Source of the DNA: Deltaproteobacteria bacterium
GTDB taxonomy: Bacteria; Desulfobacterota; Desulfobacteria; Desulfobacterales; JAHEIW01
Direction of reading: 5' to 3'
DNA: 64,000 bases
NCBI GenBank assembly: GCA_024639185.1
Contig: JAHEIW010000011.1
Location: 976 to 64,975, forward strand
In this document: one piece after another, positions 14,186-23,702 of the stretch
How positions within the stretch are numbered: position 1 is the first letter of the stretch
How the letters are laid out: each line of letters begins with the position of its first letter
Notes under the pieces: generated by a model
Databases searched by the model: none
What the model was told of the DNA's origin: nothing
The model's input: only the letters and a program-made list of their open reading frames with translations
Position numbers and translations under genes: made by a program

Positions 14186-14914
14186 ATGAGCAACAAGCAG
14201 AAAGTAACCTTATTCATTCAGTGTCTGGTGGATACGCATTATCCCGAGGTGGCCGAGGCCATGGTGCGCGTATTGCAGCGACTGGGGATTTCCTTAACCT
14301 GTCCGGGTGATCAAACCTGCTGCGGGCAGCCGGCGTTCAATTCCGGTTATCGCCGCCAGGCGCTGATTGCCGCCAAGCATTTTATTGACGTGTTTAAAGA
14401 TGCGGACACCATTGTCTGTCCCTCAGGCTCATGTGTGAACATGGTGCGGCATCATTATGCGCAGCTGTTTCAAAACGAGCCCCAATGGTTACCCCGCGCC
14501 TTGAATATGGCACGGCGCACATTTGAATTTAGCGAATACCTTGTGGACGTGCTCGACGTTGATGATCTGGGGGCGCACTTTGATGCGCGGGTAACCTATC
14601 ATGATTCCTGCCATTTGATGCGGGGCATCGGTGTCAGGCATCAGCCGCGAACGCTATTGCAGCATGTAGACGGTATCGATTTTATTGAAATGTACAATTC
14701 GGATTATTGCTGCGGATTTGGCGGAACTTTTTCCGTTAAATATCCTGATATTTCAGATGGCATGGTCAGCGATAAGGTTCAAAACATACTGGATACTGAT
14801 GCCAATGCCGTGGTGGGCTGTGATATGGGCTGTCTGATGAACATCCAGGGTAAGCTCAGCCGCCTGGGCTCTTCCATCAAAGTGATGCACCTGGCGCAAA
14901 TCCTTGCCTCTTAG
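14186..14914 (+). CDS. lutA: lactate utilization protein A, (Fe-S)-binding CCG-domain oxidoreductase
   Basis: Two CCG motifs (CCG...C, CCGFGG). Followed by lutB and lutC. Confidence 0.88.
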   Translation: MSNKQKVTLFIQCLVDTHYPEVAEAMVRVLQRLGISLTCPGDQTCCGQPAFNSGYRRQALIAAKHFIDVFKDADTIVCPSGSCVNMVRHHYAQLFQNEPQWLPRALNMARRTFEFSEYLVDVLDVDDLGAHFDARVTYHDSCHLMRGIGVRHQPRTLLQHVDGIDFIEMYNSDYCCGFGGTFSVKYPDISDGMVSDKVQNILDTDANAVVGCDMGCLMNIQGKLSRLGSSIKVMHLAQILAS

Positions 14915-14950
14915 TGCTGCTTTGAATGTGGAGAGGCTAATGACTAATTT

Positions 14951-15015
14951 ATCACGAAAGCACGAAAATACCCAAAATACGAAAAAATTGATTTCGTGCT
15001 TTTGTGGTTTTTTTT
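14951..15015 (+). terminator. intrinsic-terminator-like hairpin between lutA and lutB
   Basis: A ~15-bp stem, atcacgaaagcacgaaa / tttcgtgcttttgtggt with one G-U pair, is followed by eight T (15008-15015). Confidence 0.7.
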
Positions 15016-15051
15016 AAATTTTCTTCATCAATTCCGTCTAAAAAAATTAAA

Positions 15052-16479
15052 ATGACAAAAATAACAACTGAAAATTACGTGCCTGAGGCCAGAAAGGCCA
15101 TTAAAAATCCGGTCCTGCAAAAGGCGCTGGCGGATTTACAGAACCGTTTCGGCCGCGGCACGGCCGAATGTTACCGTCGCTTGCCGGAGGGGCCCGATCT
15201 GCGTTTAAAAGCCCATGAGATCCGGATGAAAACCATTGAAAACCTGGATGTTGTGCTGGAAACCCTGGCCGCCAACATCCGCAAAAACGGCGGTCATGTG
15301 TATTTTGCCAAAGACAGCCAGGCGGCGGTGAATTATTGCCTGAAAGTTGCCCGGCAACACCAGGTCAAACACGTGGTTAAGGGCAAATCCATGGTGAGCG
15401 AAGAGATCGGTTTAAACGATGCCCTTGTCGATGCCGGCATTGAGGTTTCTGAAACGGATCTGGGCGAGTATATCATCCAGTTGGCCGCTGAGACGCCTTC
15501 TCATATCATTGCGCCGGCCATCCACAAAACGCGCCATGATGTTGGCAGCCTGTTTGCCGAAAAGCTGGATATCCCCTACGAGGATGATCCACCCAAATTG
15601 ACCTGGATTGCCAGAAAGGCTTTGCGGCAAAAATTTCTGGCGGCGGATATGGGCACTTCCGGTTGCAATATTGCCTGTGCCGAAACCGGACACATCACAA
15701 CCGTTTCAAACGAAGGCAATATCCGCATGTCAACCACCCTGCCAAAAGTCCACATGGCGTTCATGGGCATGGAGCGTGTTGCCGCCCGTCTGGAAGATCA
15801 CGATATTCTTTTAAGGCTTCTGTGCCGGGGGGCTGCGGCCCAAAATATGGCCACCTACGTCAGCTATATTGGCGGCCCCCGCCAGGCGGATCAGGCCGAT
15901 GGGCCCCGGGAGTTTCACCTGGTTATTCTGGATAACGGGCGCAGCCGGATTCTGGCCGATCCTGAATTTCGCGAGATGCTATGCTGCATCCGGTGTGCGG
16001 CCTGCCTGAATGTGTGCCCGGTTTATGCCAAGATTGGCGGGCATTCCTACGGATACGCCTATACCGGACCGGTAGGCGCGGTGGTCACACCTTTGCTGGT
16101 GGGGATTAATCGCGCCAAGGACCTGTGTCAGGGGGAGACCCTGTGCGGTGCCTGCCAGGTTGCCTGTGCCGTCAATATCGATCTGCCGCGCATGCTGCTG
16201 GCCTTGCGGGAAAAACTGGCCGAAGGTGATCCGGCCTGGCAGGTAAATCCGGCAGATCGTAAGGAAAGACTTTTATGGCAGGCCTGGTCCTGGATCATCC
16301 GCAATCGGTCTGTTTACGACCTTGCCCTGCGATTAGCGGCTGTGGGACAAAAACTGATGCCGCAGCGAAACGGTATGATCCGCCGCCTGCCGCCGCCGGT
16401 CAATGGCTGGACGCAGGGGCGGGATTTAAAGCCGTTGGCCAATCAAAGCTTTATACGACGCTGGAAAAAAGGCCTTTAG
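15052..16479 (+). CDS. lutB: lactate utilization protein B, 4Fe-4S ferredoxin-type / LUD-domain protein
   Basis: Two ferredoxin-type Cys clusters (CIRCAACLNVCP, CGACQVAC) and typical LutB length. ATG at 15052 preferred because the track start at 15004 lies inside the terminator hairpin. Confidence 0.88.
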   Translation: MTKITTENYVPEARKAIKNPVLQKALADLQNRFGRGTAECYRRLPEGPDLRLKAHEIRMKTIENLDVVLETLAANIRKNGGHVYFAKDSQAAVNYCLKVARQHQVKHVVKGKSMVSEEIGLNDALVDAGIEVSETDLGEYIIQLAAETPSHIIAPAIHKTRHDVGSLFAEKLDIPYEDDPPKLTWIARKALRQKFLAADMGTSGCNIACAETGHITTVSNEGNIRMSTTLPKVHMAFMGMERVAARLEDHDILLRLLCRGAAAQNMATYVSYIGGPRQADQADGPREFHLVILDNGRSRILADPEFREMLCCIRCAACLNVCPVYAKIGGHSYGYAYTGPVGAVVTPLLVGINRAKDLCQGETLCGACQVACAVNIDLPRMLLALREKLAEGDPAWQVNPADRKERLLWQAWSWIIRNRSVYDLALRLAAVGQKLMPQRNGMIRRLPPPVNGWTQGRDLKPLANQSFIRRWKKGL

Positions 16480-16549
16480 AATGGTGATCGAAGAGATGAA
16501 CAACAATGGATAGCGGGCATATCATTTTCCGATAGAAAGTTCGAATGAA

Positions 16550-17308
16550 ATGAGAGATTCAGGACAAGAACCGTTTATAAATACCGTCAAAAAGGCTTTG
16601 GGAAAATCGCAGGCTGCATCCGGCAGTCAGGCCGATTTGTTTGGCGGTGATATGTCCGCTGAAAGCCGGGCGATATTAGAGCGCATTCAAAACCGCAGTG
16701 CGGTGGAGCGCAAAAGACTGCTCGACACCTTAATTAAAGCCGCCGGTCCCATCAACCTGAAAGTAATTCCCTGTGACGGCATCAACACCGTAACCGATGC
16801 CATCGCGGCATTGGTCCGGGCAAAAGATCCCGAATGGGGTGAGCAAAAACGGGTCGTGGCCTGGGCCCACCCGCTGATTGAACGCCTGAGCCTGCCGGCT
16901 GCTTTGGCCGAACAAAATGTAGGTTTGTTTGTCACCGAGTCGAAAAATACCACGGAAAAAGACATCCGACAGCAGGTTGTCGATGCTTACATAGGTGTGA
17001 CCTCGGCCGATTTTTGCATGGCTGACACTGCCACTGTGGTGATGCGGGCCCGGCCCGGCCATGCGCGTATCGTATCGCTGGTGCCGGCTATTCATATCGC
17101 TGTCATTAAGCTCGATCAGATCGTTGCCGATTTAAAAGAGCTCTACGCCCTGCTTAAATGGGACCCGCATGAGCGGCTGCAGGGCTTATCCAATTGTCTG
17201 ACGTTTATATCCGGCCCCAGTAAGACCGCCGATATCGAAGCCACCATGGTGCATGGCGCCCATGGCCCGCGGGAAGTCCACCTTTTTGTGATTACCGCCC
17301 ATGATTGA
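16550..17308 (+). CDS. lutC: lactate utilization protein C (LUD domain)
   Basis: Sits after lutAB. LUD-domain-like C-terminal region (SGPSKTADIE...). Confidence 0.75.
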   Translation: MRDSGQEPFINTVKKALGKSQAASGSQADLFGGDMSAESRAILERIQNRSAVERKRLLDTLIKAAGPINLKVIPCDGINTVTDAIAALVRAKDPEWGEQKRVVAWAHPLIERLSLPAALAEQNVGLFVTESKNTTEKDIRQQVVDAYIGVTSADFCMADTATVVMRARPGHARIVSLVPAIHIAVIKLDQIVADLKELYALLKWDPHERLQGLSNCLTFISGPSKTADIEATMVHGAHGPREVHLFVITAHD

Positions 17309-17716: not shown

Positions 17717-20173
17717 TTGCGACGCGAAGATGTGGTTGAGATCAGTATCGATGGTCCCGTCAGCCGTAAATCCCGGCGCGGGCACTTCTTGCGGGTGGCC
17801 GGCCCGATCGGATTTGTTATTGTCATGCTGGCGGCCTTGCTGGCGATTACGGCATATTCTCAGTACAGCAATCGCCGCGGCACAAGGGTGCTTTCGGATG
17901 ATTTGCTGGGGGCGATTGAAAGACGTATCAGCAGTGAGCTCAAGGCCTTTTTTGAGCCGATTAGAGATACCGCCCGACTAACGGCTGACTTTTTCAATCG
18001 TATTTCCTTTGACGTGCACAACCGGGAATTTATAGAGCCAATTGCTTTCAGGGTGCTGGATAACCTTCCCCAGGTCAGCAATTTCATAGTGGCTGATCCC
18101 CGGGGTAATTTTTTGATGATCAGCCGGATGCCGGACGGATCCATGCACACTAAAACTATTGCGCGCACGCCGGAGGCGACCCGGGTTACCTGGATCCGTC
18201 GGGACACGACCGGCAAGGTGATTGCCAGGGAAATATCCACAGATGATTCCTACGATCCGCGCAATCGGCCCTGGTATACGGAGGCGGTGGCCAGCCGCGA
18301 TGTGCGCTGGTCGGATTTCTATATTTTTTTTACCAGTCAAGCACATGGTACAACCATCTCTATGCCGATTCTCGGGGAAGCCGACCAACTTCAGGGTGTC
18401 TTTGGGCTGGATATCGAATTAAAGGTAATCAGCGCATTTCTTCAAACATTGAAAATTGGCCAGCAGGGTGAGGCCATCATTGTTGACGAAGACGGCTACA
18501 TCGTTGCCCATCCGGAAATTGAAAAAGCGATAAAAAAAGACGGCGATCGGTACAGGCCGATTCGGGTTGAAGAATTGGGAAATCAGATTTTGAACCGCGC
18601 CTACAACCGCTTCCGCATCGATGGGCACGGCCGGCGCGATCTGACCATTGCGGGTAAGCGTTATCTGAGTTCTGCTTTTGCGCTTCCCCGCAAAACAGGC
18701 GGAAATTTAACGGTATTTATTTTCGTGCCGGAAGAGGACTTTGTCGGCTTTGTGTCACGTAACAACCGTGCCATGTTACTGATGTCCACCGGCATCGTTG
18801 CTTTAGCAGCCCTGATGGCCGGGCTGCTGGTTTTCCAGGGCCTGCGGGCGGAGCGCAACGCCCAGCTGGTGCTCGATCGCCAGGATGAACTCGAGGCCCA
18901 GAGCCGGGCTTTCTCCGAACTATCATCCACAGCTGCCCTGTTTGATGCCGAAAATACCGATTCCTTCAGAAAGTTGACCGAGATTGTCACCGATGCGGTC
19001 AGCCTGAGACGCACCAGTGTGTGGCATTTCGATGATAACGGCCAATTTTTGCGGTGCGTCGACAGTTATGATCGCGAGAGCAATGGCCATACAGAGGGGA
19101 CCGTGCTGGCGCGGGCAGATTTTGTGCCGTTCTTTGACATGTTGCAGAACGGTGAAGTTATCAGGGCCGAGGACGCTGAAAATGATAGTCACGTGGCCGA
19201 GCTGTACCGGGTGTACCTGCAACCGCTGGGCTGTGAATCATTGTTGGCGGTACCGATTCGGTATCGCGGTCAGACACCAGGGGCCCTGTGGTTCGAGCAT
19301 GATCGACAGCGCGACGGCTGGTCGAGCGAAGAAATCTCCTTTGCGCATGCCATTGCCGACATGCTGGCGCTTCGGTTGTCAGTGGATCCGGAATGCATCC
19401 GTGCATTTACTCAACCGGAAGAAGATACCGGAACTGCAGAGGCACCCGGTGCCCTATCGCCGGAACCAGCTGCGGTTGCCGGAGACATTCGAGCCGAGGA
19501 ACCTCCTATTGCATCCGATACCGCCCAGCAACGGTCGAGCCCGAATTCGACGGGCAGAAAAACGCCCGTCATCTCGTTTTTGGATCGTCTAAAAGCCGGG
19601 GGTATCGACCCCGATCAAACCGCTGCGGATATCTTCCCAGATATGACAGTTCTGGTCCTGCAATTTACCGACACCATATCCCTTGCCGGGCGTATGACGG
19701 ATACCGAGTCAACAACGACGGTTGATCAAATGGTCGGTCACCTGGAAGATCTGGTCACAGCCCGGGGCATCGACTACATGAAGGTGATGGGGGAGGAAAT
19801 CGTCTGTGCGGCGGGATTTGACGCTGGATCTGAAGGACATGCCGTTCTGATCGCTGACCTGGCACTCGGGATCCAGAATCACTGTGCCGGCCTGTTTGCA
19901 TCGCTAAACGCAGCCATGGAATTCCGGATCGGGATCGACACCGGGGCTGTTTTGGGCAGTTCGGTGGGTCGTAAAGCAAAAACATATAATATATGGGGCG
20001 AGTCGGTTCGTTTTGCATCCAAGATGGCAGATTCCGGAATACCCGGTGGCATTCAGGTGTCGGAAACCACCTATCGTCGTCTGCGCGCCCATTACCTGTT
20101 TAAATTGCGCGGCCGCTATTATTTGCCCAACATCGGTGAAACCTCAACCTATTTTCTGACAGGACAAATATGA
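17717..20173 (+). CDS. membrane sensor protein: Cache-like periplasmic domain, TM, GAF, class III cyclase-homology domain (non-canonical catalytic residues)
   Basis: 818 aa. TTG start preceded by GGAGG. Two TM segments flank a ~300-aa Cache-like region. GAF region (...LLAVPIRYRGQTPGALWFEH). The C-terminal CHD has FTD, MKVMGEE and WGESVRFASK at the conserved motif positions. Confidence 0.8.
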   Translation: MRREDVVEISIDGPVSRKSRRGHFLRVAGPIGFVIVMLAALLAITAYSQYSNRRGTRVLSDDLLGAIERRISSELKAFFEPIRDTARLTADFFNRISFDVHNREFIEPIAFRVLDNLPQVSNFIVADPRGNFLMISRMPDGSMHTKTIARTPEATRVTWIRRDTTGKVIAREISTDDSYDPRNRPWYTEAVASRDVRWSDFYIFFTSQAHGTTISMPILGEADQLQGVFGLDIELKVISAFLQTLKIGQQGEAIIVDEDGYIVAHPEIEKAIKKDGDRYRPIRVEELGNQILNRAYNRFRIDGHGRRDLTIAGKRYLSSAFALPRKTGGNLTVFIFVPEEDFVGFVSRNNRAMLLMSTGIVALAALMAGLLVFQGLRAERNAQLVLDRQDELEAQSRAFSELSSTAALFDAENTDSFRKLTEIVTDAVSLRRTSVWHFDDNGQFLRCVDSYDRESNGHTEGTVLARADFVPFFDMLQNGEVIRAEDAENDSHVAELYRVYLQPLGCESLLAVPIRYRGQTPGALWFEHDRQRDGWSSEEISFAHAIADMLALRLSVDPECIRAFTQPEEDTGTAEAPGALSPEPAAVAGDIRAEEPPIASDTAQQRSSPNSTGRKTPVISFLDRLKAGGIDPDQTAADIFPDMTVLVLQFTDTISLAGRMTDTESTTTVDQMVGHLEDLVTARGIDYMKVMGEEIVCAAGFDAGSEGHAVLIADLALGIQNHCAGLFASLNAAMEFRIGIDTGAVLGSSVGRKAKTYNIWGESVRFASKMADSGIPGGIQVSETTYRRLRAHYLFKLRGRYYLPNIGETSTYFLTGQI

Positions 20174-21012
20174 ACGACGAAGGCGTTATATCAGGAAAAA
20201 ACGGCACATCGCATGCGGGATCGATGCTGAGGCGCTTGCTAGCAATCATCGGAAAATGGACGATTGGCTTCTGGCAATGGCCGGTTCTATTTATCAGCGA
20301 TGCCGTTGCCGTCATCTGGCAAAGTTTACGCCCGATTACCTGGCGACGGTCGATCCGCGCCGAGTTTTTGCGTCAGTGTCAGCAGGTGGGCGCACAGGCG
20401 TTGCCCTTTATTCTGGTTGCCGGCGTTTTTGTGGGATTTGGCCTGGTCGCACAGGCTTATCACTGGCTCACCGTCTTCGGCAGCACCCGATTGTTCGGCG
20501 GATTTCTGTCGGCAATACTCGTACGTGAAATAGCGCCGGTGCTGGTGGGCCTGATTGTGATCGGGCGCAGCGGCTCGACCCTGCTGGTCGAATTGGGTAC
20601 CATGAAGACCGCAGGCCAGGTCCACATGCTGGATGCCCAGGGCATCGATCCATTCCTGTATCTCGTGGTGCCGCGGGTGCTGGCATTCAGCATTTGTATG
20701 TTTTCATTGACGACGGCTTTTGTGGCCGTGGCGCTCTTAGCGGGCTTTTTTTCAGGTGTGCTGATCGGCATCACCCAATTTTATTTTTTCGATTTTCTCG
20801 GCCGCGCGATCGGCTCAATGGGTTGGCAAACATATGTGTTGTTCGCGTTAAAGACGGTTACCATTGGCTTTGCAATTGCGCTGATATCATGCAGGACGGC
20901 CGTGTCGCTAACCGGCGTCTCGGCCAACGTACTGGATATCATGCCGCGAGGCTTTGCCCTATCGGCGTTGGCGACGTTAATCATTTCGATAGCTCTGACA
21001 ATTTTATTCTAG
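20170..21012 (+). CDS. mlaE: MlaE-family ABC transporter permease
   Basis: MlaE/YrbE signature region (REIAPVLVGLIVIGRSGSTLLVELGTMK...Q..ML...GIDP). ATGA overlap with the cyclase stop. Confidence 0.88.
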   Translation: MNDEGVISGKNGTSHAGSMLRRLLAIIGKWTIGFWQWPVLFISDAVAVIWQSLRPITWRRSIRAEFLRQCQQVGAQALPFILVAGVFVGFGLVAQAYHWLTVFGSTRLFGGFLSAILVREIAPVLVGLIVIGRSGSTLLVELGTMKTAGQVHMLDAQGIDPFLYLVVPRVLAFSICMFSLTTAFVAVALLAGFFSGVLIGITQFYFFDFLGRAIGSMGWQTYVLFALKTVTIGFAIALISCRTAVSLTGVSANVLDIMPRGFALSALATLIISIALTILF

Positions 21013-21028
21013 CAATGGGTAAGTTGTA

Positions 21029-21736
21029 ATGACAGCAACAGTTAAACGGGAGCGCGTGATTCTGCAATTCGATGATACCGTTTTCACAGACACATCCGGG
21101 GCTGTCGCTCAGTCCGATGAAGTCAGCCTGAGTGCCTGCGCTGGCGATCTGATCTTGATCCGTCTGGCCCGTCTGGACCAAACAACAGGCCTGGCAGATG
21201 CATGCGCCGGAATCCTGAGGCCAAGCCGCGGTGCCGTCCGTTTTCTGGGACGCAACTGGCCGGAGCTGACACCGGACCAGGCCAATGCGCTGCGGGGTCG
21301 GATCGGTCGTGTTTTTAAGACCGGCAATTGGGTTAGTCACTTATCGGTCATGGATAATATATTGCTTCACCAGCGACACCATACCCGCCGATCTGTCCAG
21401 CGGCTGTGCGAGGAGGCCGGGGAGCTGTCACAGAAATTTGGCCTTCCCGGGCTTTCTTTAGAGCTGCCCGGGGATTGTACCGCAGGCGACCTGAGGCGCG
21501 CGGCCTGTGTGCGGGCATTTCTGGGTCGGCCCCTGCTGATCCTGCTGGAAGAACCCACAAGCGGCATTTTCCTCGAGGTGATATCTGCATTGATGGGCGC
21601 CATTCGCGATGCACGTGATCGCGGGGCCGCAGTCATCTGGCTGACACAAAAAGGTTTAATCTGGAAAGATCAAACGCTGCCGGTAACCAGACGCTATCGA
21701 TTAATCGCCGGGAGGTTGATGGAGGTGACACCGTGA
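21029..21736 (+). CDS. MlaF-like ABC ATPase homologue with degenerate nucleotide-binding motifs
   Basis: Collinear with ABC ATPases. The Walker A position reads RLARLDQTT, the signature position CTAGDL, Walker B LLILLEEP, and the H-loop position TQK. Confidence 0.65.
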   Translation: MTATVKRERVILQFDDTVFTDTSGAVAQSDEVSLSACAGDLILIRLARLDQTTGLADACAGILRPSRGAVRFLGRNWPELTPDQANALRGRIGRVFKTGNWVSHLSVMDNILLHQRHHTRRSVQRLCEEAGELSQKFGLPGLSLELPGDCTAGDLRRAACVRAFLGRPLLILLEEPTSGIFLEVISALMGAIRDARDRGAAVIWLTQKGLIWKDQTLPVTRRYRLIAGRLMEVTP

Positions 21737-22779
21737 AAGAGATGCTGCCGCAACCGAAATTTCGTTATACCAATGAAACGGTCGGATTGTTTGTGCTAAT
21801 CTTCGTAATGATTTTTATCGCCGGGCTATTATACTCCGGTCAGGTCCGCAAATGGTTCAATCCCGGTGAAACGCTCAAGGTTGTTTTGCCCGATGAAGGC
21901 CTTTTTGGTCTGGCGAAAGGATCGCCAGTCGAAATTCTGGGAACCAAAGCGGGGGAAGTCACGGATATTGTCATCAATCCCGACGAAAAGATACATGCGA
22001 ATGTACGCATTGATAGTGACATGGCGGTATTTGTACGCAGCGATTCAAAAGCTTCCATTCTCAAGACATTCGGCATCGCCGGTGATGCCTATCTTGAAAT
22101 TACACGGGGCAGCGGGGCCGAGCTGGATTGGGAATTTGCGGTCCTTACCGTCGAATTGGATCGCAGTACATCCGACACTCTGGCTGAGTTAATCGATAAT
22201 CTGCGGGAAAAGGTTTTGCCGGTTGTCGATGATGCCCATGAAGCGATCCTTGTCTTGACGGCAGTGGTAAGGGATCTGCAGCACGATGAAAAGGGCGTCC
22301 AGAATTTGCTGGCGAATCTGAATTCCATCGCCGATAAGATCGACAGCGGAGAGGGGACTATCGGGCGCCTGCTGACTGAAGATAAGCTTGTAAGAAACTT
22401 AGAAGACCTGGTTGCGCGTGTAGCAAAGCTTTTTGACGATTTGAAGGAAACGGTTCAAAACGTTGCAGCGTATTCAGTTGAATTTGATAATGAAACCGGC
22501 GATATCCCTCAAATTACGCGCAGTCTGAAAAAGACCATGGCGTCAATGGAAATCGTGATGAAAGACCTTAGCAAAGCAACGCCACAGCTGCCGAAGATTG
22601 TCGAAAATGTCGGCGACACTGCGGATAGCGTCCCGATCCTCGTTTTGCAACTGCAACAGGTGATGGTCGAAATGGAGCGTTTGATCCAGCAATTGCAGTC
22701 TCACTGGCTGCTGGGGGGTGGCTCCCGCCAGCCGTCACAGGCGGATAGCCGAATATCACCGCTGGAGGTAAACCCATGA
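21733..22779 (+). CDS. mlaD: MlaD/MCE-domain protein
   Basis: N-terminal TM anchor, then an MCE domain (LFGLAKGSPVEILGTKAGEVTDI...), then a long helical C-terminus. 4-nt overlap with the upstream gene. Confidence 0.85.
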   Translation: MKEMLPQPKFRYTNETVGLFVLIFVMIFIAGLLYSGQVRKWFNPGETLKVVLPDEGLFGLAKGSPVEILGTKAGEVTDIVINPDEKIHANVRIDSDMAVFVRSDSKASILKTFGIAGDAYLEITRGSGAELDWEFAVLTVELDRSTSDTLAELIDNLREKVLPVVDDAHEAILVLTAVVRDLQHDEKGVQNLLANLNSIADKIDSGEGTIGRLLTEDKLVRNLEDLVARVAKLFDDLKETVQNVAAYSVEFDNETGDIPQITRSLKKTMASMEIVMKDLSKATPQLPKIVENVGDTADSVPILVLQLQQVMVEMERLIQQLQSHWLLGGGSRQPSQADSRISPLEVNP

Positions 22780-23702
22780 GGTGTTATCTGCGTTTGATTT
22801 ATGGGATGGGATTTATCGGCTTGCTGATGGCAGTTGCTGTTTTGACGCTGAGCGGTTGCGGGTCTTCACCACCGAAGCAAAAAGGTCCGGCCCCCGATAA
22901 AGAGCTGCAGCGGTTTAACAGCGCTGCGCGACAGGCCTTTGATAAGAGTCGCTTCGAGCAAGCTGCCAACTTTTACCGTAAGGCACTGGAGCGTGCATAC
23001 GTGCGCGATGATACAGCCGCAATTCTGGATGCCCAGTATAATCTGGCAGTTTGTTTGCTGAACCTGCAATCCTATGATGAGGCGCTTGAAGTGGTCCGGT
23101 GCGCCAACACCGAAATGGCGTTAGCGGATCACGGCAAATCGGTCGATTTTTTGCTTTTGGAAGCCACCGTCCTTCACAGGGGCGGGGATCTGAACGCCGC
23201 CTGGCAGGCGACCGATCAAATTTTATCCATTCCGTCACAATCCTCTTCAATTATTAAAAGCAAAACCCATTTTCTGCGGGGCTTGATGGCCAGCGAACAG
23301 GAGGACCTGGATCAGTTGCGTGTGGAGATTACCGCCTTAGGGCAACCAGAGCAATCACGGCTGCGGGCCGATTATCAGGAGCTGGTCGGGCGTCTGGCCA
23401 TGGCCGGACAAAACTGGGATGCTGCTATTGATGCATTTGACAACGCAACGAACCTGCGCCGTGAAATGCTAGATTATCGGGGTATGGTGAGGGTCGTCGT
23501 CCTGGCGGGCGAAGCCAGTCAAAAGGCGGGGCGCACGCGGGAGGCTGCCATTTATTATCTGAGAGCCGGCCGAAGCGCTTTTTGGCAGGACCAGTTTGAT
23601 GATGCCCGCCAATGGCTGAATGAGTCCATCCAGCTGGCTACCAGCGCCAATGAAGATCAAATCATCGAGGAGGCCCGCAGCCTTTTGCGGCAAAATCATT
23701 AA
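22776..23702 (+). CDS. TPR-repeat lipoprotein
   Basis: Lipobox LTLSGC. Several TPR-like helical repeats (AANFYRKALERAY..., YNLAVCLLNLQSYDEAL). 4-nt overlap with mlaD. Confidence 0.7.
   Translation: MRCYLRLIYGMGFIGLLMAVAVLTLSGCGSSPPKQKGPAPDKELQRFNSAARQAFDKSRFEQAANFYRKALERAYVRDDTAAILDAQYNLAVCLLNLQSYDEALEVVRCANTEMALADHGKSVDFLLLEATVLHRGGDLNAAWQATDQILSIPSQSSSIIKSKTHFLRGLMASEQEDLDQLRVEITALGQPEQSRLRADYQELVGRLAMAGQNWDAAIDAFDNATNLRREMLDYRGMVRVVVLAGEASQKAGRTREAAIYYLRAGRSAFWQDQFDDARQWLNESIQLATSANEDQIIEEARSLLRQNH

Follow-up and report, generated by a model that had tools for sequence, protein, structure and literature searches.

A conserved ABC nucleotide-binding domain lacking the ATP-handling motifs in an MlaE/MCE gene cassette of a Desulfobacterales bacterium

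The window, that is, the whole stretch of 64,000 nucleotides analysed here, contains a cassette of five genes on the forward strand, which encode in this order a dCache-GAF sensor with a dead cyclase domain, an MlaE-type permease, an ABC nucleotide-binding domain (NBD) protein, an MCE needle protein and a TPR lipoprotein. The sensor (17,717-20,173; 818 aa) is composed of a transmembrane segment, a periplasmic dCache_1 domain, a second transmembrane segment, a GAF domain and a C-terminal class III pseudo-cyclase (PF02743, PF01590 and PF00211, the last at 89.2 bits). Its stop overlaps the start of the mlaE gene (20170/20173), whose product is a permease of 280 aa (20,170-21,012; PF02405, 142.8 bits). 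The next gene (21,029-21,736) encodes 235 aa with the complete fold of an ABC NBD and without its nucleotide-binding and catalytic motifs; we refer to it as the pseudo-NBD, or pseudo-MlaF. It lies between the permease gene and an MCE (MlaD-like) gene (PF02470; 21,733-22,779), the start of which overlaps the pseudo-NBD stop. The 348-aa MCE protein has an N-terminal transmembrane segment, one MCE domain and a long helical region, the needle; TIGR00996 matches its residues 17-299, the Helical_needle family PF28544 is weakly matched on orthologues, and the C-terminal tail (WLLGG...RISPLEVNP) is conserved. The fifth gene (22,776-23,702; 308 aa) encodes a protein with a signal peptide, a lipobox L-S-G-C (read from the translation) and TPR families, in which Pfam and NCBIfam profiles revealed TPR repeats but no PqiC-type family. 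This lipoprotein is probably the outer-membrane partner of the needle. None of the five genes encodes a second ATPase, just as the earlier note on this DNA had stated, and Pfam searches detected neither a STAS domain nor an output domain (DNA-binding, kinase or active cyclase) in the cassette.

The earlier note had described the 235-aa protein as collinear with ABC ATPases, and had suggested a profile alignment with inspection of each motif and a structure prediction as checks. Both analyses agree with that description. The only Pfam match is PF00005, at 30.4 bits (cut-off 25), and since it spans profile positions 27-137 the Walker A part of the profile remains unmatched. The matches to NCBIfam models, including FtsE, DevA and MlaF, are all far below their cut-offs; for example, the MlaF equivalog NF008809 scores 45.7 bits against a cut-off of 441. 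The AlphaFold2 model has a mean pLDDT of 94.3 and a pTM of 0.91, and shows the RecA-like core together with the helical subdomain. Foldseek aligns it with YbbA, LolD, MacB, MlaF, FtsE and MceG at TM scores of 0.80-0.85 over about 225-232 columns, while the top sequence matches in the PDB are MlaF of A. baumannii and E. coli and MceG. The protein stops at residue 235, whereas the alignment shows its canonical paralogues from the same genome extending further; the C-terminal extension of the MlaF type is missing, as is the STAS partner MlaB from the cassette. In public databases such proteins are annotated as phospholipid/cholesterol/gamma-HCH transport system ATP-binding protein, organic solvent ABC transporter ATP-binding protein or ATP-binding cassette domain-containing protein, pipeline labels that exceed what pseudo-NBD proteins can do.

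Three canonical MlaF-type ATPases of the same genome, with the Walker A sequences GGSGSGKS, GQSGTGKS and GLSGTGKS, served as the reference for the motifs. At the former Walker A (21,161-21,187), R45-L-A-R-L-D-Q-T-T53 replaces G-x-S-G-x-G-K-S, with T52 at the Lys position, and in the model (DSSP) the P-loop has shrunk to a turn of two residues that links strand 41-46 to helix 49-59. The Q-loop Gln is aligned with K97 (21,317-21,319). The former LSGGQ signature (21,476-21,493) reads C150-T-A-G-D-L155, where C150-T-A-G-D154 stands for L-S-G-G-M/Q and where D154 and L155 are conserved residues specific to the pseudo-NBD family. The former Walker B strand (21,533-21,556) is L169-LILLEE-P176, compared with hhhhD-E-P: E174 replaces the Mg-binding Asp and E175 occupies the position of the catalytic Glu. 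The D-loop S-G-L-D has become S-G-I-F181, with loss of its Asp, and at the former H-loop (21,644-21,652) T206-Q207-K208 replaces S/T-H-E, so that the His is Q207. The alignment thus puts each replacement listed in the earlier note (RLARLDQTT, VFK, CTAGDL, LLILLEEP and TQK) where that note had placed it. An intact P-loop in another register, which would have overturned that reading, is ruled out: the pattern G....GK[ST], sought in every register, is absent from the protein and from 150 listed representatives of its family. Judging from these residues, we infer that the pseudo-NBD would be unable to bind or hydrolyse ATP in the manner of ABC proteins.

The loss of the motifs is a property of the whole family. 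The same replacements are found in 120 close orthologues (65-100% identity, about 235 aa, frame intact), none of which has the canonical motifs that the earlier note had named as a sign of recent change, and the family comprises about 304 clusters at 50% identity. Motif counts are based on the 150 listed representatives, 140 of which were aligned. Among these 140, the P-loop Lys position never holds a Lys, the Q-loop Gln is present in four and the H-loop His in six, the S-G of the signature is rare, and not a single member retains two or more of the five motif cores. The position of the Walker B Asp is a Glu in 120 of the 140, while that of the catalytic Glu is variable (E in 27/140). The former motif positions are in fact the least conserved of the protein, with a mean top-residue frequency of 0.23 in the aligned representatives versus 0.53 elsewhere (Mann-Whitney p = 5e-8). 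Conservation peaks in the strand leading to the Q-loop (0.79), followed by the signature helix (0.72) and the strand that precedes the H-loop (0.70). Purifying selection acts on the gene: its dN/dS is 0.15-0.25, compared with 0.16-0.29 for mlaE and 0.12-0.17 for the MCE gene. The orthologue comparison proposed in the earlier note therefore bears out its suggestion that a non-catalytic form is being maintained. In the Desulfobacterales subgroup, moreover, R45, R48, E/D50, Q51, T52, D154 and K208 are nearly invariant among close orthologues, and the conservation of the replaced P-loop residues (R45, R48, E/D50 and Q51) could mean a new local function instead of mere decay.

In a FastTree phylogeny of 83 NBDs from the same genome and 26 family representatives, the pseudo-NBDs form one clade with a support of 1.0. 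This clade sits on a long branch, and its attachment to the other NBDs has a support of 0.2; descent from the MlaF clade therefore rests on the operon position and the best matches. The five-gene order recurs in Desulfobacterales MAGs, in an uncultured proteobacterium and in the genomes G741 and G732, down to 27-39% identity, and the carriers are sediment bacteria; every named hit is a MAG. The sensor gene lies immediately 5′ of mlaE at all loci having that flank. The TPR lipoprotein gene is likewise syntenic wherever its flank is present, except at the Ca. Entotheonella locus, where just the first 68 residues of the MCE protein are matched and no TPR gene follows; at the G103 locus the contig stops within the MCE gene. 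Two distant representatives lie on contigs of just 1-2 kb, without useful gene context.

The pseudo-NBD is accompanied by a second degenerate enzyme. The earlier note had called the upstream cyclase domain similarly degenerate, and a comparison with Cya of PDB 5o5k confirms this for five catalytic residues. The two metal-binding Asp residues are replaced by Gln (Asp1) and Glu (Asp2), Asn stands in for the substrate Asp, and the transition-state Asn and the Arg have become Arg and Lys; of the catalytic set only the Lys is retained. In relatives, the metal Asp1 position holds K, R or Q. The domain is dead in nearly all cassette members, the G103 relative retaining D, D, K and D.

Two or three canonical Mla systems are likewise present in every cassette genome that was checked. 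The cassette MlaE stands apart from these: in the genome under study it scores 143 bits in the MlaE search versus 241-264 bits for the other three paralogues, and no MlaE paralogue diverges further in any of the eight genomes with the cassette that were searched (this one and seven others). Each of the other three MlaE genes adjoins its own canonical ATPase, and the canonical C213 and C363 operons have the same order as the cassette (E, NBD, D, lipoprotein). There are four MlaF-type ATPases for these three canonical MlaE genes. The fourth (C228:1048-2289) lies on a 2.4-kb contig on which no MlaE precedes it; it probably belongs to the C267 operon, where the end of its own contig could abut a truncated MlaE, and this is more likely than its being an orphan. 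Canonical MlaF paralogues encoded in this genome carry, as a fusion, a degenerate GGDEF domain, whose fold is of the cyclase type. In this lineage, such cyclase-fold domains are thus tethered to Mla NBDs.

The pseudo-NBD is a genuine ABC NBD that was inactivated in the distant past, and we consider it reasonably probable that its role is non-catalytic, either structural or transducing, within an MCE system that is gated by a sensor and independent of ATP. Of the three options offered in the earlier note, namely a borrowed ATPase, transport without hydrolysis and a regulatory scaffold, the data lean to the last two, although they do not separate the mechanisms. There are three observations behind this preference. 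First, the pseudo-NBD holds the NBD position in every cassette. Second, the cassette MlaE is the most divergent paralogue wherever it was compared. Third, the sensor with the dead cyclase is always co-encoded. The envelope machine is therefore likely to operate, or to be gated, with no ATP consumption of its own.

The pseudo-NBD may have been retained for its continued docking on the MlaE dimer, at the cytoplasmic coupling helices; conservation is highest in the strand that leads to the Q-loop, in the helical subdomain and in the strands and helices of the core. A docked pseudo-NBD would stabilise the membrane complex. A structural role of this kind has a precedent in MCE systems, as the Mce1 and Mce4 proteins are degraded without MceG (PMC9947336). 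In addition, it probably relays conformational input from the GAF and pseudo-cyclase module of the sensor to the permease. Lipid, or another hydrophobic cargo, would then follow the path of MlaE, MCE needle and lipoprotein passively or under the control of ligand sensing, and would not be driven by ATP at the pseudo-NBD. The structural model is of a single chain, for which docking on MlaE and contact with the cyclase domain would be expected. A bolder version, which we put forward tentatively and think doubtful as it stands, is that a widespread but patchy class of MlaE/MCE systems has swapped ATP-driven cycling for ligand gating. In such a class, the signal from the dCache sensor would pass via its GAF and dead cyclase domains to two dead NBDs that grip the coupling helices, a passive lipid conduit to the outer membrane would thereby be opened or closed, and the two pseudoenzymes would constitute a new module for coupling a signal to a transporter.

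Other explanations have to be considered. Theoretically, ATP could still power transport if the MlaE dimer combined one pseudo-NBD with one canonical MlaF-type ATPase encoded elsewhere, or if the two were exchanged. Two or three further MlaE systems with canonical ATPases are at hand in every cassette genome checked, the genome under study has one MlaF-type ATPase more than it has canonical MlaE genes, and the sharing of one ATPase by Mce1 and Mce4 is documented (PMC9947336). However, because the pseudo-NBD has neither Walker A nor signature, both composite sites of such a heterodimer would be one half short. Furthermore, the pseudo-NBD is encoded with translational coupling at the NBD position in every cassette, the cassette MlaE is very different from the paralogues whose ATPases it would need to accommodate, and the surplus ATPase (C228) probably has its own place in the C267 operon. 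On this evidence we regard a borrowed or mixed motor as unlikely.

Another possibility, in our opinion quite unlikely, is that the system is not a transporter at all. MlaE, the MCE needle and the TPR lipoprotein might form a tether across the envelope, or a sensor of its state, whose mechanical condition or lipid occupancy is reported to the cytoplasm through the two pseudoenzymes. It is in keeping with this idea that both cytoplasmic modules of enzyme type are dead yet conserved, that the sensor protein is invariably coupled to the cassette, and that the TPR lipoprotein and the conserved tail at the C-terminus of the needle point to a fixed bridge. The cassette, however, encodes no output domain, and purifying selection acts on its MlaE and MCE parts just as it does in transport systems. 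The idea also overlaps with our preferred explanation, the sole difference being whether cargo moves.

The remodelled ATP pocket might alternatively have become a receptor for a different ligand, be it a small molecule (a cyclic nucleotide or an anion, for instance) or a partner peptide, making the pseudo-NBD a regulatory sensor. The nearly invariant pocket residues of the close Desulfobacterales (R45, R48, E/D50, Q51, T52, D154 and K208) and the presence of GAF and cyclase-type signalling domains in the cassette are consistent with such a role. Family-wide, however, the positions lining the pocket are the most variable of the protein, unlike a conserved ligand site; the P-loop of the model is down to a two-residue turn, and the cyclase that might make the ligand is dead in nearly all members. 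We therefore find a ligand receptor very improbable. Finally, a dying ATPase gene in a MAG, or an assembly or frame artefact, has only the missing motifs in its favour and can practically be dismissed in view of the intact frame, the 120 orthologues of about 235 aa at 65-100% identity, a dN/dS of about 0.2, the high-confidence model and the roughly 304 clusters.

The significance of a non-catalytic NBD in such a cassette, as we prefer to see it, lies in the central role of MCE/Mla systems in outer-membrane lipid homeostasis, where the energy source and the direction of lipid movement are still debated. A large, selected family whose sole NBD is without ATP chemistry is a natural experiment: it indicates that a permease of the MlaE type, combined with an MCE needle, can be of use in the absence of an ATPase of its own, and the cassette offers a defined system for probing passive or sensor-gated lipid flow. 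Stand-alone ABC NBDs that have become pseudoenzymes are rare, and here the operon contains a second pseudoenzyme as well, the cyclase domain, with which the pseudo-NBD is paired. In the literature we found no description of a dead ATPase in Mla/MCE systems, of MlaF-GGDEF fusions or of ABC pseudoenzymes of this kind.

Heterodimeric ABC proteins with degenerate sites, such as CFTR, SUR, TAP and TM287/288, contain domains that serve regulation or gating without hydrolysis. There, just one of the two composite sites is degenerate; the other remains active, and the proteins continue to bind ATP. The pseudo-NBD differs from them in being the product of a single NBD gene that is without both halves of the site.

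Comparison with the known MCE systems may provide some further orientation. MlaF of the MlaFEDB complexes of E. coli and A. baumannii (PDB 6xbd, 7d06 and 6z5u; PMC7367683) gives the best sequence matches among solved structures, shares the NBD fold at a TM score of about 0.8, and has MlaE and MCE gene neighbours like those of the pseudo-NBD. However, it possesses all ATPase motifs, the C-terminal extension and the STAS partner MlaB, none of which is present here. Among the closest sequence and structure matches is also mycobacterial MceG (Mkl; PDB 8fed), an ATPase encoded elsewhere that serves the MCE permeases Mce1 and Mce4 and stabilises the complex (PMC9947336). MceG is catalytically active, with Walker B residues needed for both transport and stabilisation, whereas the pseudo-NBD is devoid of motifs; and mycobacteria, unlike the cassette, have no dead NBD in the operon.

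A precedent for MCE conduits without ATP hydrolysis is provided by PqiABC and LetAB, which have no ABC ATPase. These rely on membrane proteins of the PqiA/LetA type and have no NBD-like subunit, whereas the cassette uses an MlaE permease. The possible energy sources of envelope lipid transporters at large have been listed as ATP hydrolysis, the proton-motive force or passive transport (PMC13631591). The same order of permease, NBD, single-MCE needle protein and lipoprotein is found in PA3211-PA3214 of P. aeruginosa and MpcEFDA of Brucella abortus (PMC13631591, PMC12436622). The needle MCE protein is 348 aa long in the cassette versus 312 aa for PA3213, and the cassette protein shares with systems of the PA3211-PA3214 type the feature of a conserved C-terminal peptide, which in those systems was shown to bind the lipoprotein (PMC13631591). 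Measured against these tripartite MCE systems, the cassette has the MlaE-type permease and the single-MCE needle protein but not the active ATPase or the PqiC-like lipoprotein. Where PA3211-PA3214 and Mpc have a normal ATPase and a PqiC-like lipoprotein, the cassette has a dead NBD and a TPR lipoprotein and, unlike both, it co-encodes an additional dCache-GAF sensor with a pseudo-cyclase.

The pseudo-NBD, the 235-aa product of 21029-21736, belongs to a cassette of five tightly packed + strand genes spanning 17717-23702 of the window. According to Pfam, the first gene (17717-20173) encodes an 818-aa sensor with dCache_1, GAF and class III cyclase domains. It is followed by an MlaE-type permease (20170-21012; PF02405, 142.8 bits), the pseudo-NBD, an MCE/MlaD protein whose C-terminal part is long and helical (21733-22779; Pfam and NCBIfam) and a TPR protein with the lipobox LSGC (22776-23702; TPR families and translation). 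Neighbouring genes overlap by 4 nt at three of the four junctions and are separated by a 16-nt gap at the remaining one. Outside the cassette are lactate-utilisation (LUD-domain) genes on the 5′ side (14186-17308), an AI-2E-family transporter gene on the 3′ side and, downstream on the opposite strand, a complete ABC system with a pair of canonical ABC ATPases, a pair of integral membrane proteins and what is probably a binding protein. Relatives have a gene for a NorB-like haem-copper oxidase between the LUD genes and the cassette (L005/L006, 1-4355), and an AI-2E-family gene is found 3′ of the cassette there too; the wider neighbourhood is partly conserved among Desulfobacterales MAGs.

Alignment with the three canonical MlaF-type ATPases encoded beside the other MlaE genes in this genome placed every motif replacement reported in the earlier note where it had been claimed. 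The Walker A motif, G-x-S-G-x-G-K-S in the canonical proteins, is L46-A-R-L-D-Q-T52-T53; the Q-loop Gln is K97; the signature L-S-G-G-M/Q is C150-T-A-G-D154; the Walker B motif hhhhD-E is LLILLE174-E175; the D-loop S-G-L-D is S-G-I-F181; and the H-loop His is Q207. A pattern search found no intact P-loop in another register. PF00005 is the sole Pfam family matched (30.4 bits), and this match begins at profile position 27, behind the Walker A part. NCBIfam matches were far below threshold (FtsE 54.8 bits; MlaF 45.7 bits against a cut-off of 441), and the best sequence matches in the PDB were MlaF of A. baumannii and E. coli and mycobacterial MceG. Nevertheless, the pseudo-NBD is predicted to be a well-folded NBD. 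The AlphaFold2 model, based on a 53-sequence family alignment, has a mean pLDDT of 94.3 and a pTM of 0.91, and Foldseek matched it in the PDB exclusively to ABC NBDs (YbbA, LolD, MacB, MlaF, FtsE and MceG; TM 0.80-0.85 over about 225-232 columns). Since only two residues separate strand 41-46 from helix 49-59 in the model, the glycine-rich phosphate-binding loop has collapsed there to a short turn.

The remark in the earlier note that the upstream cyclase domain is similarly degenerate was borne out. Relative to Cya (PDB 5o5k), the two metal-binding Asp residues are replaced by Gln and Glu, the substrate Asp by Asn, the transition-state Asn by Arg, and the Arg by Lys. The domain is degenerate in all cassette genomes found except G103, a genome from a different order of the phylum, where both metal-binding Asp residues, the Lys and the substrate Asp are still present in the domain (L053:5684-6226) and just the Asn and the Arg are missing. 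The G103 domain may be closer to an ancestral, active state. By these residues, the sensor is dead yet conserved.

Every locus with sufficient flank has its genes in the order sensor-cyclase, MlaE, pseudo-NBD, MCE protein, and the TPR lipoprotein comes next in all loci with that flank except the Entotheonella locus. This order was found in Desulfobacterales MAGs (60-91% identity), in further genera of the same order (45-60%), in G103, in Ca. Entotheonella and an uncultured proteobacterium (about 44%), and in two genomes, G741 and G732, whose five proteins share just 27-39% identity with their counterparts in the window. The G103 cassette is the most distant of the phylum, and the N-terminal part of its sensor has no match to that of the window. 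The distribution is patchy: with part of the candidates per genome scored, the cassette was found, as lower bounds, in 16 of the 301 genomes sampled from the order (6 of 155 genera), in 4 of 401 from the phylum, in 3 of 201 from the class of another genome, G689, and in 1 of 17 from the Entotheonella phylum. In Ca. Entotheonella (L036/L055; about 7869-8072 of L055), the MCE protein matches over its first 68 residues only, with no match to a TPR gene; the 3′ part of the cassette may have been replaced or disrupted there.

With moderate confidence, we regard the pseudo-NBD as a non-catalytic partner of MlaE in a passive or ligand-gated MCE path. It would no longer bind or hydrolyse ATP, would be retained on the cytoplasmic side as partner of the MlaE dimer, would stabilise the membrane complex, and would probably relay the state of the GAF and pseudo-cyclase domains of the sensor to the permease. 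The route leading from MlaE via the MCE needle to the lipoprotein would be passive or gated by a ligand. MCE systems that lack an ABC ATPase exist in PqiABC and LetAB. Absence of MceG in mycobacteria leads to degradation of the Mce1 and Mce4 proteins (PMC9947336), and envelope lipid transporters in general may use ATP hydrolysis, proton-motive force or passive transport (PMC13631591). The C-terminal tail of the MCE protein is conserved (W-L-L-G-G, about 10 variable residues, then R-[IL]-S-P-x-E-V-x-P) and can still be made out in the most distant loci, where MCE identity is just about 29-34%. It includes the last 9 codons of the gene (22750-22776, + strand), found at the same place in L005-L035, L051, L052 and L054. 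Peptides are commonly bound by TPR domains. The C-terminal peptide of PqiB and of PA3213 binds outer-membrane lipoproteins (PMC13631591). For these two reasons, the TPR lipoprotein is probably the outer-membrane anchor of the needle, and the MCE tail is a candidate docking peptide for it.

Alternatively, a borrowed or mixed canonical ATPase could drive the cassette, which we consider unlikely. Four MlaE genes are present in the genome itself (5.09 Mb in 443 contigs, 92% complete). Of these, the cassette MlaE is by far the most divergent (143 versus 241-264 bits), and a canonical ATPase adjoins each of the other three. Seven further cassette genomes show the same pattern, with two to three canonical MlaE genes and one divergent cassette MlaE. 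The cassette is always an additional system in these eight genomes, and therefore absence of other ATPases is no argument against a borrowed one. Three canonical MlaF-type ATPases of the genome (403-418 aa; L001:2363-3574 (= C363:7675-8886), C267:11-1267 and C228:1048-2289, all outside the window) end in a degenerate GGDEF domain (PF00990, 60.3 and 41.7 bits in the two scanned), with GGFSAR replacing GGDEF. No MlaB/STAS gene was seen beside them, and on the 2.4-kb contig C228 no MlaE lies upstream of the ATPase gene. The GGDEF fold is shared by class III cyclase domains, and the fusion lends weak, Rosetta-stone-like support to the idea, part of the favoured reading, that the cyclase-type domain of the sensor sits beside the pseudo-NBD. 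Another genome, G388, encodes a distinct MlaF-like protein (L010:1339-2082, - strand) with intact Walker A (GGSGSGKS) and Q-loop Gln, the signature LSLEM, a Walker B of LLDQP (catalytic Glu to Gln) and Ser for the H-loop His; it looks like an ATP-binding, non-hydrolysing NBD.

That permease, needle and lipoprotein form a non-transporting tether or sensor seems less probable again. A new ligand pocket in the pseudo-NBD is given a lower probability still and is weakened by the variability of the pocket across the family. Searching 1.84 billion representatives (50% clusters) with a profile gave 304 proteins at E <= 1e-30, almost all of 225-250 aa, and Walker A is absent from all 150 of them that were listed. 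Among 140 full-length representatives, none has Lys at the P-loop Lys position, 4 have the Q-loop Gln, 6 the H-loop His and 27 Glu at the catalytic position; none has two or more of the five motif cores. The mean top-residue frequency is 0.23 at ex-motif positions versus 0.53 elsewhere (Mann-Whitney p = 5e-8), a pattern inverse to that of real ABC ATPases. Conservation is highest in the strand before the Q-loop (R89-G-R-I-G-R-V-F, 0.79), with the helix following the signature (D154-L-x-R-A-x-x-V-R-A-F-L-G-x-P, 0.72) and the strand preceding the H-loop (G-A-A-V-x-W-x-T, 0.70) next. Therefore, the fold core and the region facing the coupling helix in ABC transporters are kept while the former ATP sandwich face drifts. 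Family-specific residues include W101, H117-H118 and P143.

Recent decay of the gene, which canonical motifs in close relatives would have implied, has next to no probability and was refuted. A search of 5.8 billion proteins gave 904 homologues, the best 120 of which are nearly all 235 aa long, 65-100% identical and from Desulfobacterales MAGs; in these 120 the replacement residues are near-invariant (R45, E174, E175, T206 and K208, each 120/120). In pairwise comparison with seven orthologous loci, the pseudo-NBD gene has a dN/dS of 0.15-0.25, similar to the values for mlaE (0.16-0.29), the cyclase domain (0.14-0.21) and the MCE gene (0.12-0.17). Sequence comparison thus indicates that the motif loss is old and under selection, and it is close to certain that the pseudo-NBD is non-catalytic and selected. 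The earlier interpretation is supported in part, namely for a selected non-catalytic form.

A full-text literature search turned up no account of this cassette or of any Mla or MCE system with a dead NBD, and public annotation presents the homologues as Mla-type ATP-binding proteins. By sequence and operon position, MlaF is nearest to the pseudo-NBD, which falls outside the MlaF equivalog by score, motifs, C-terminal extension and MlaB partner. The nearest tripartite architectures are PA3211-PA3214 of P. aeruginosa (PMC13631591) and MpcEFDA of Brucella (PMC12436622). Unlike both of them, the cassette has a dead NBD, a TPR lipoprotein where those systems have a PqiC-like one, and an added sensor pseudo-cyclase.
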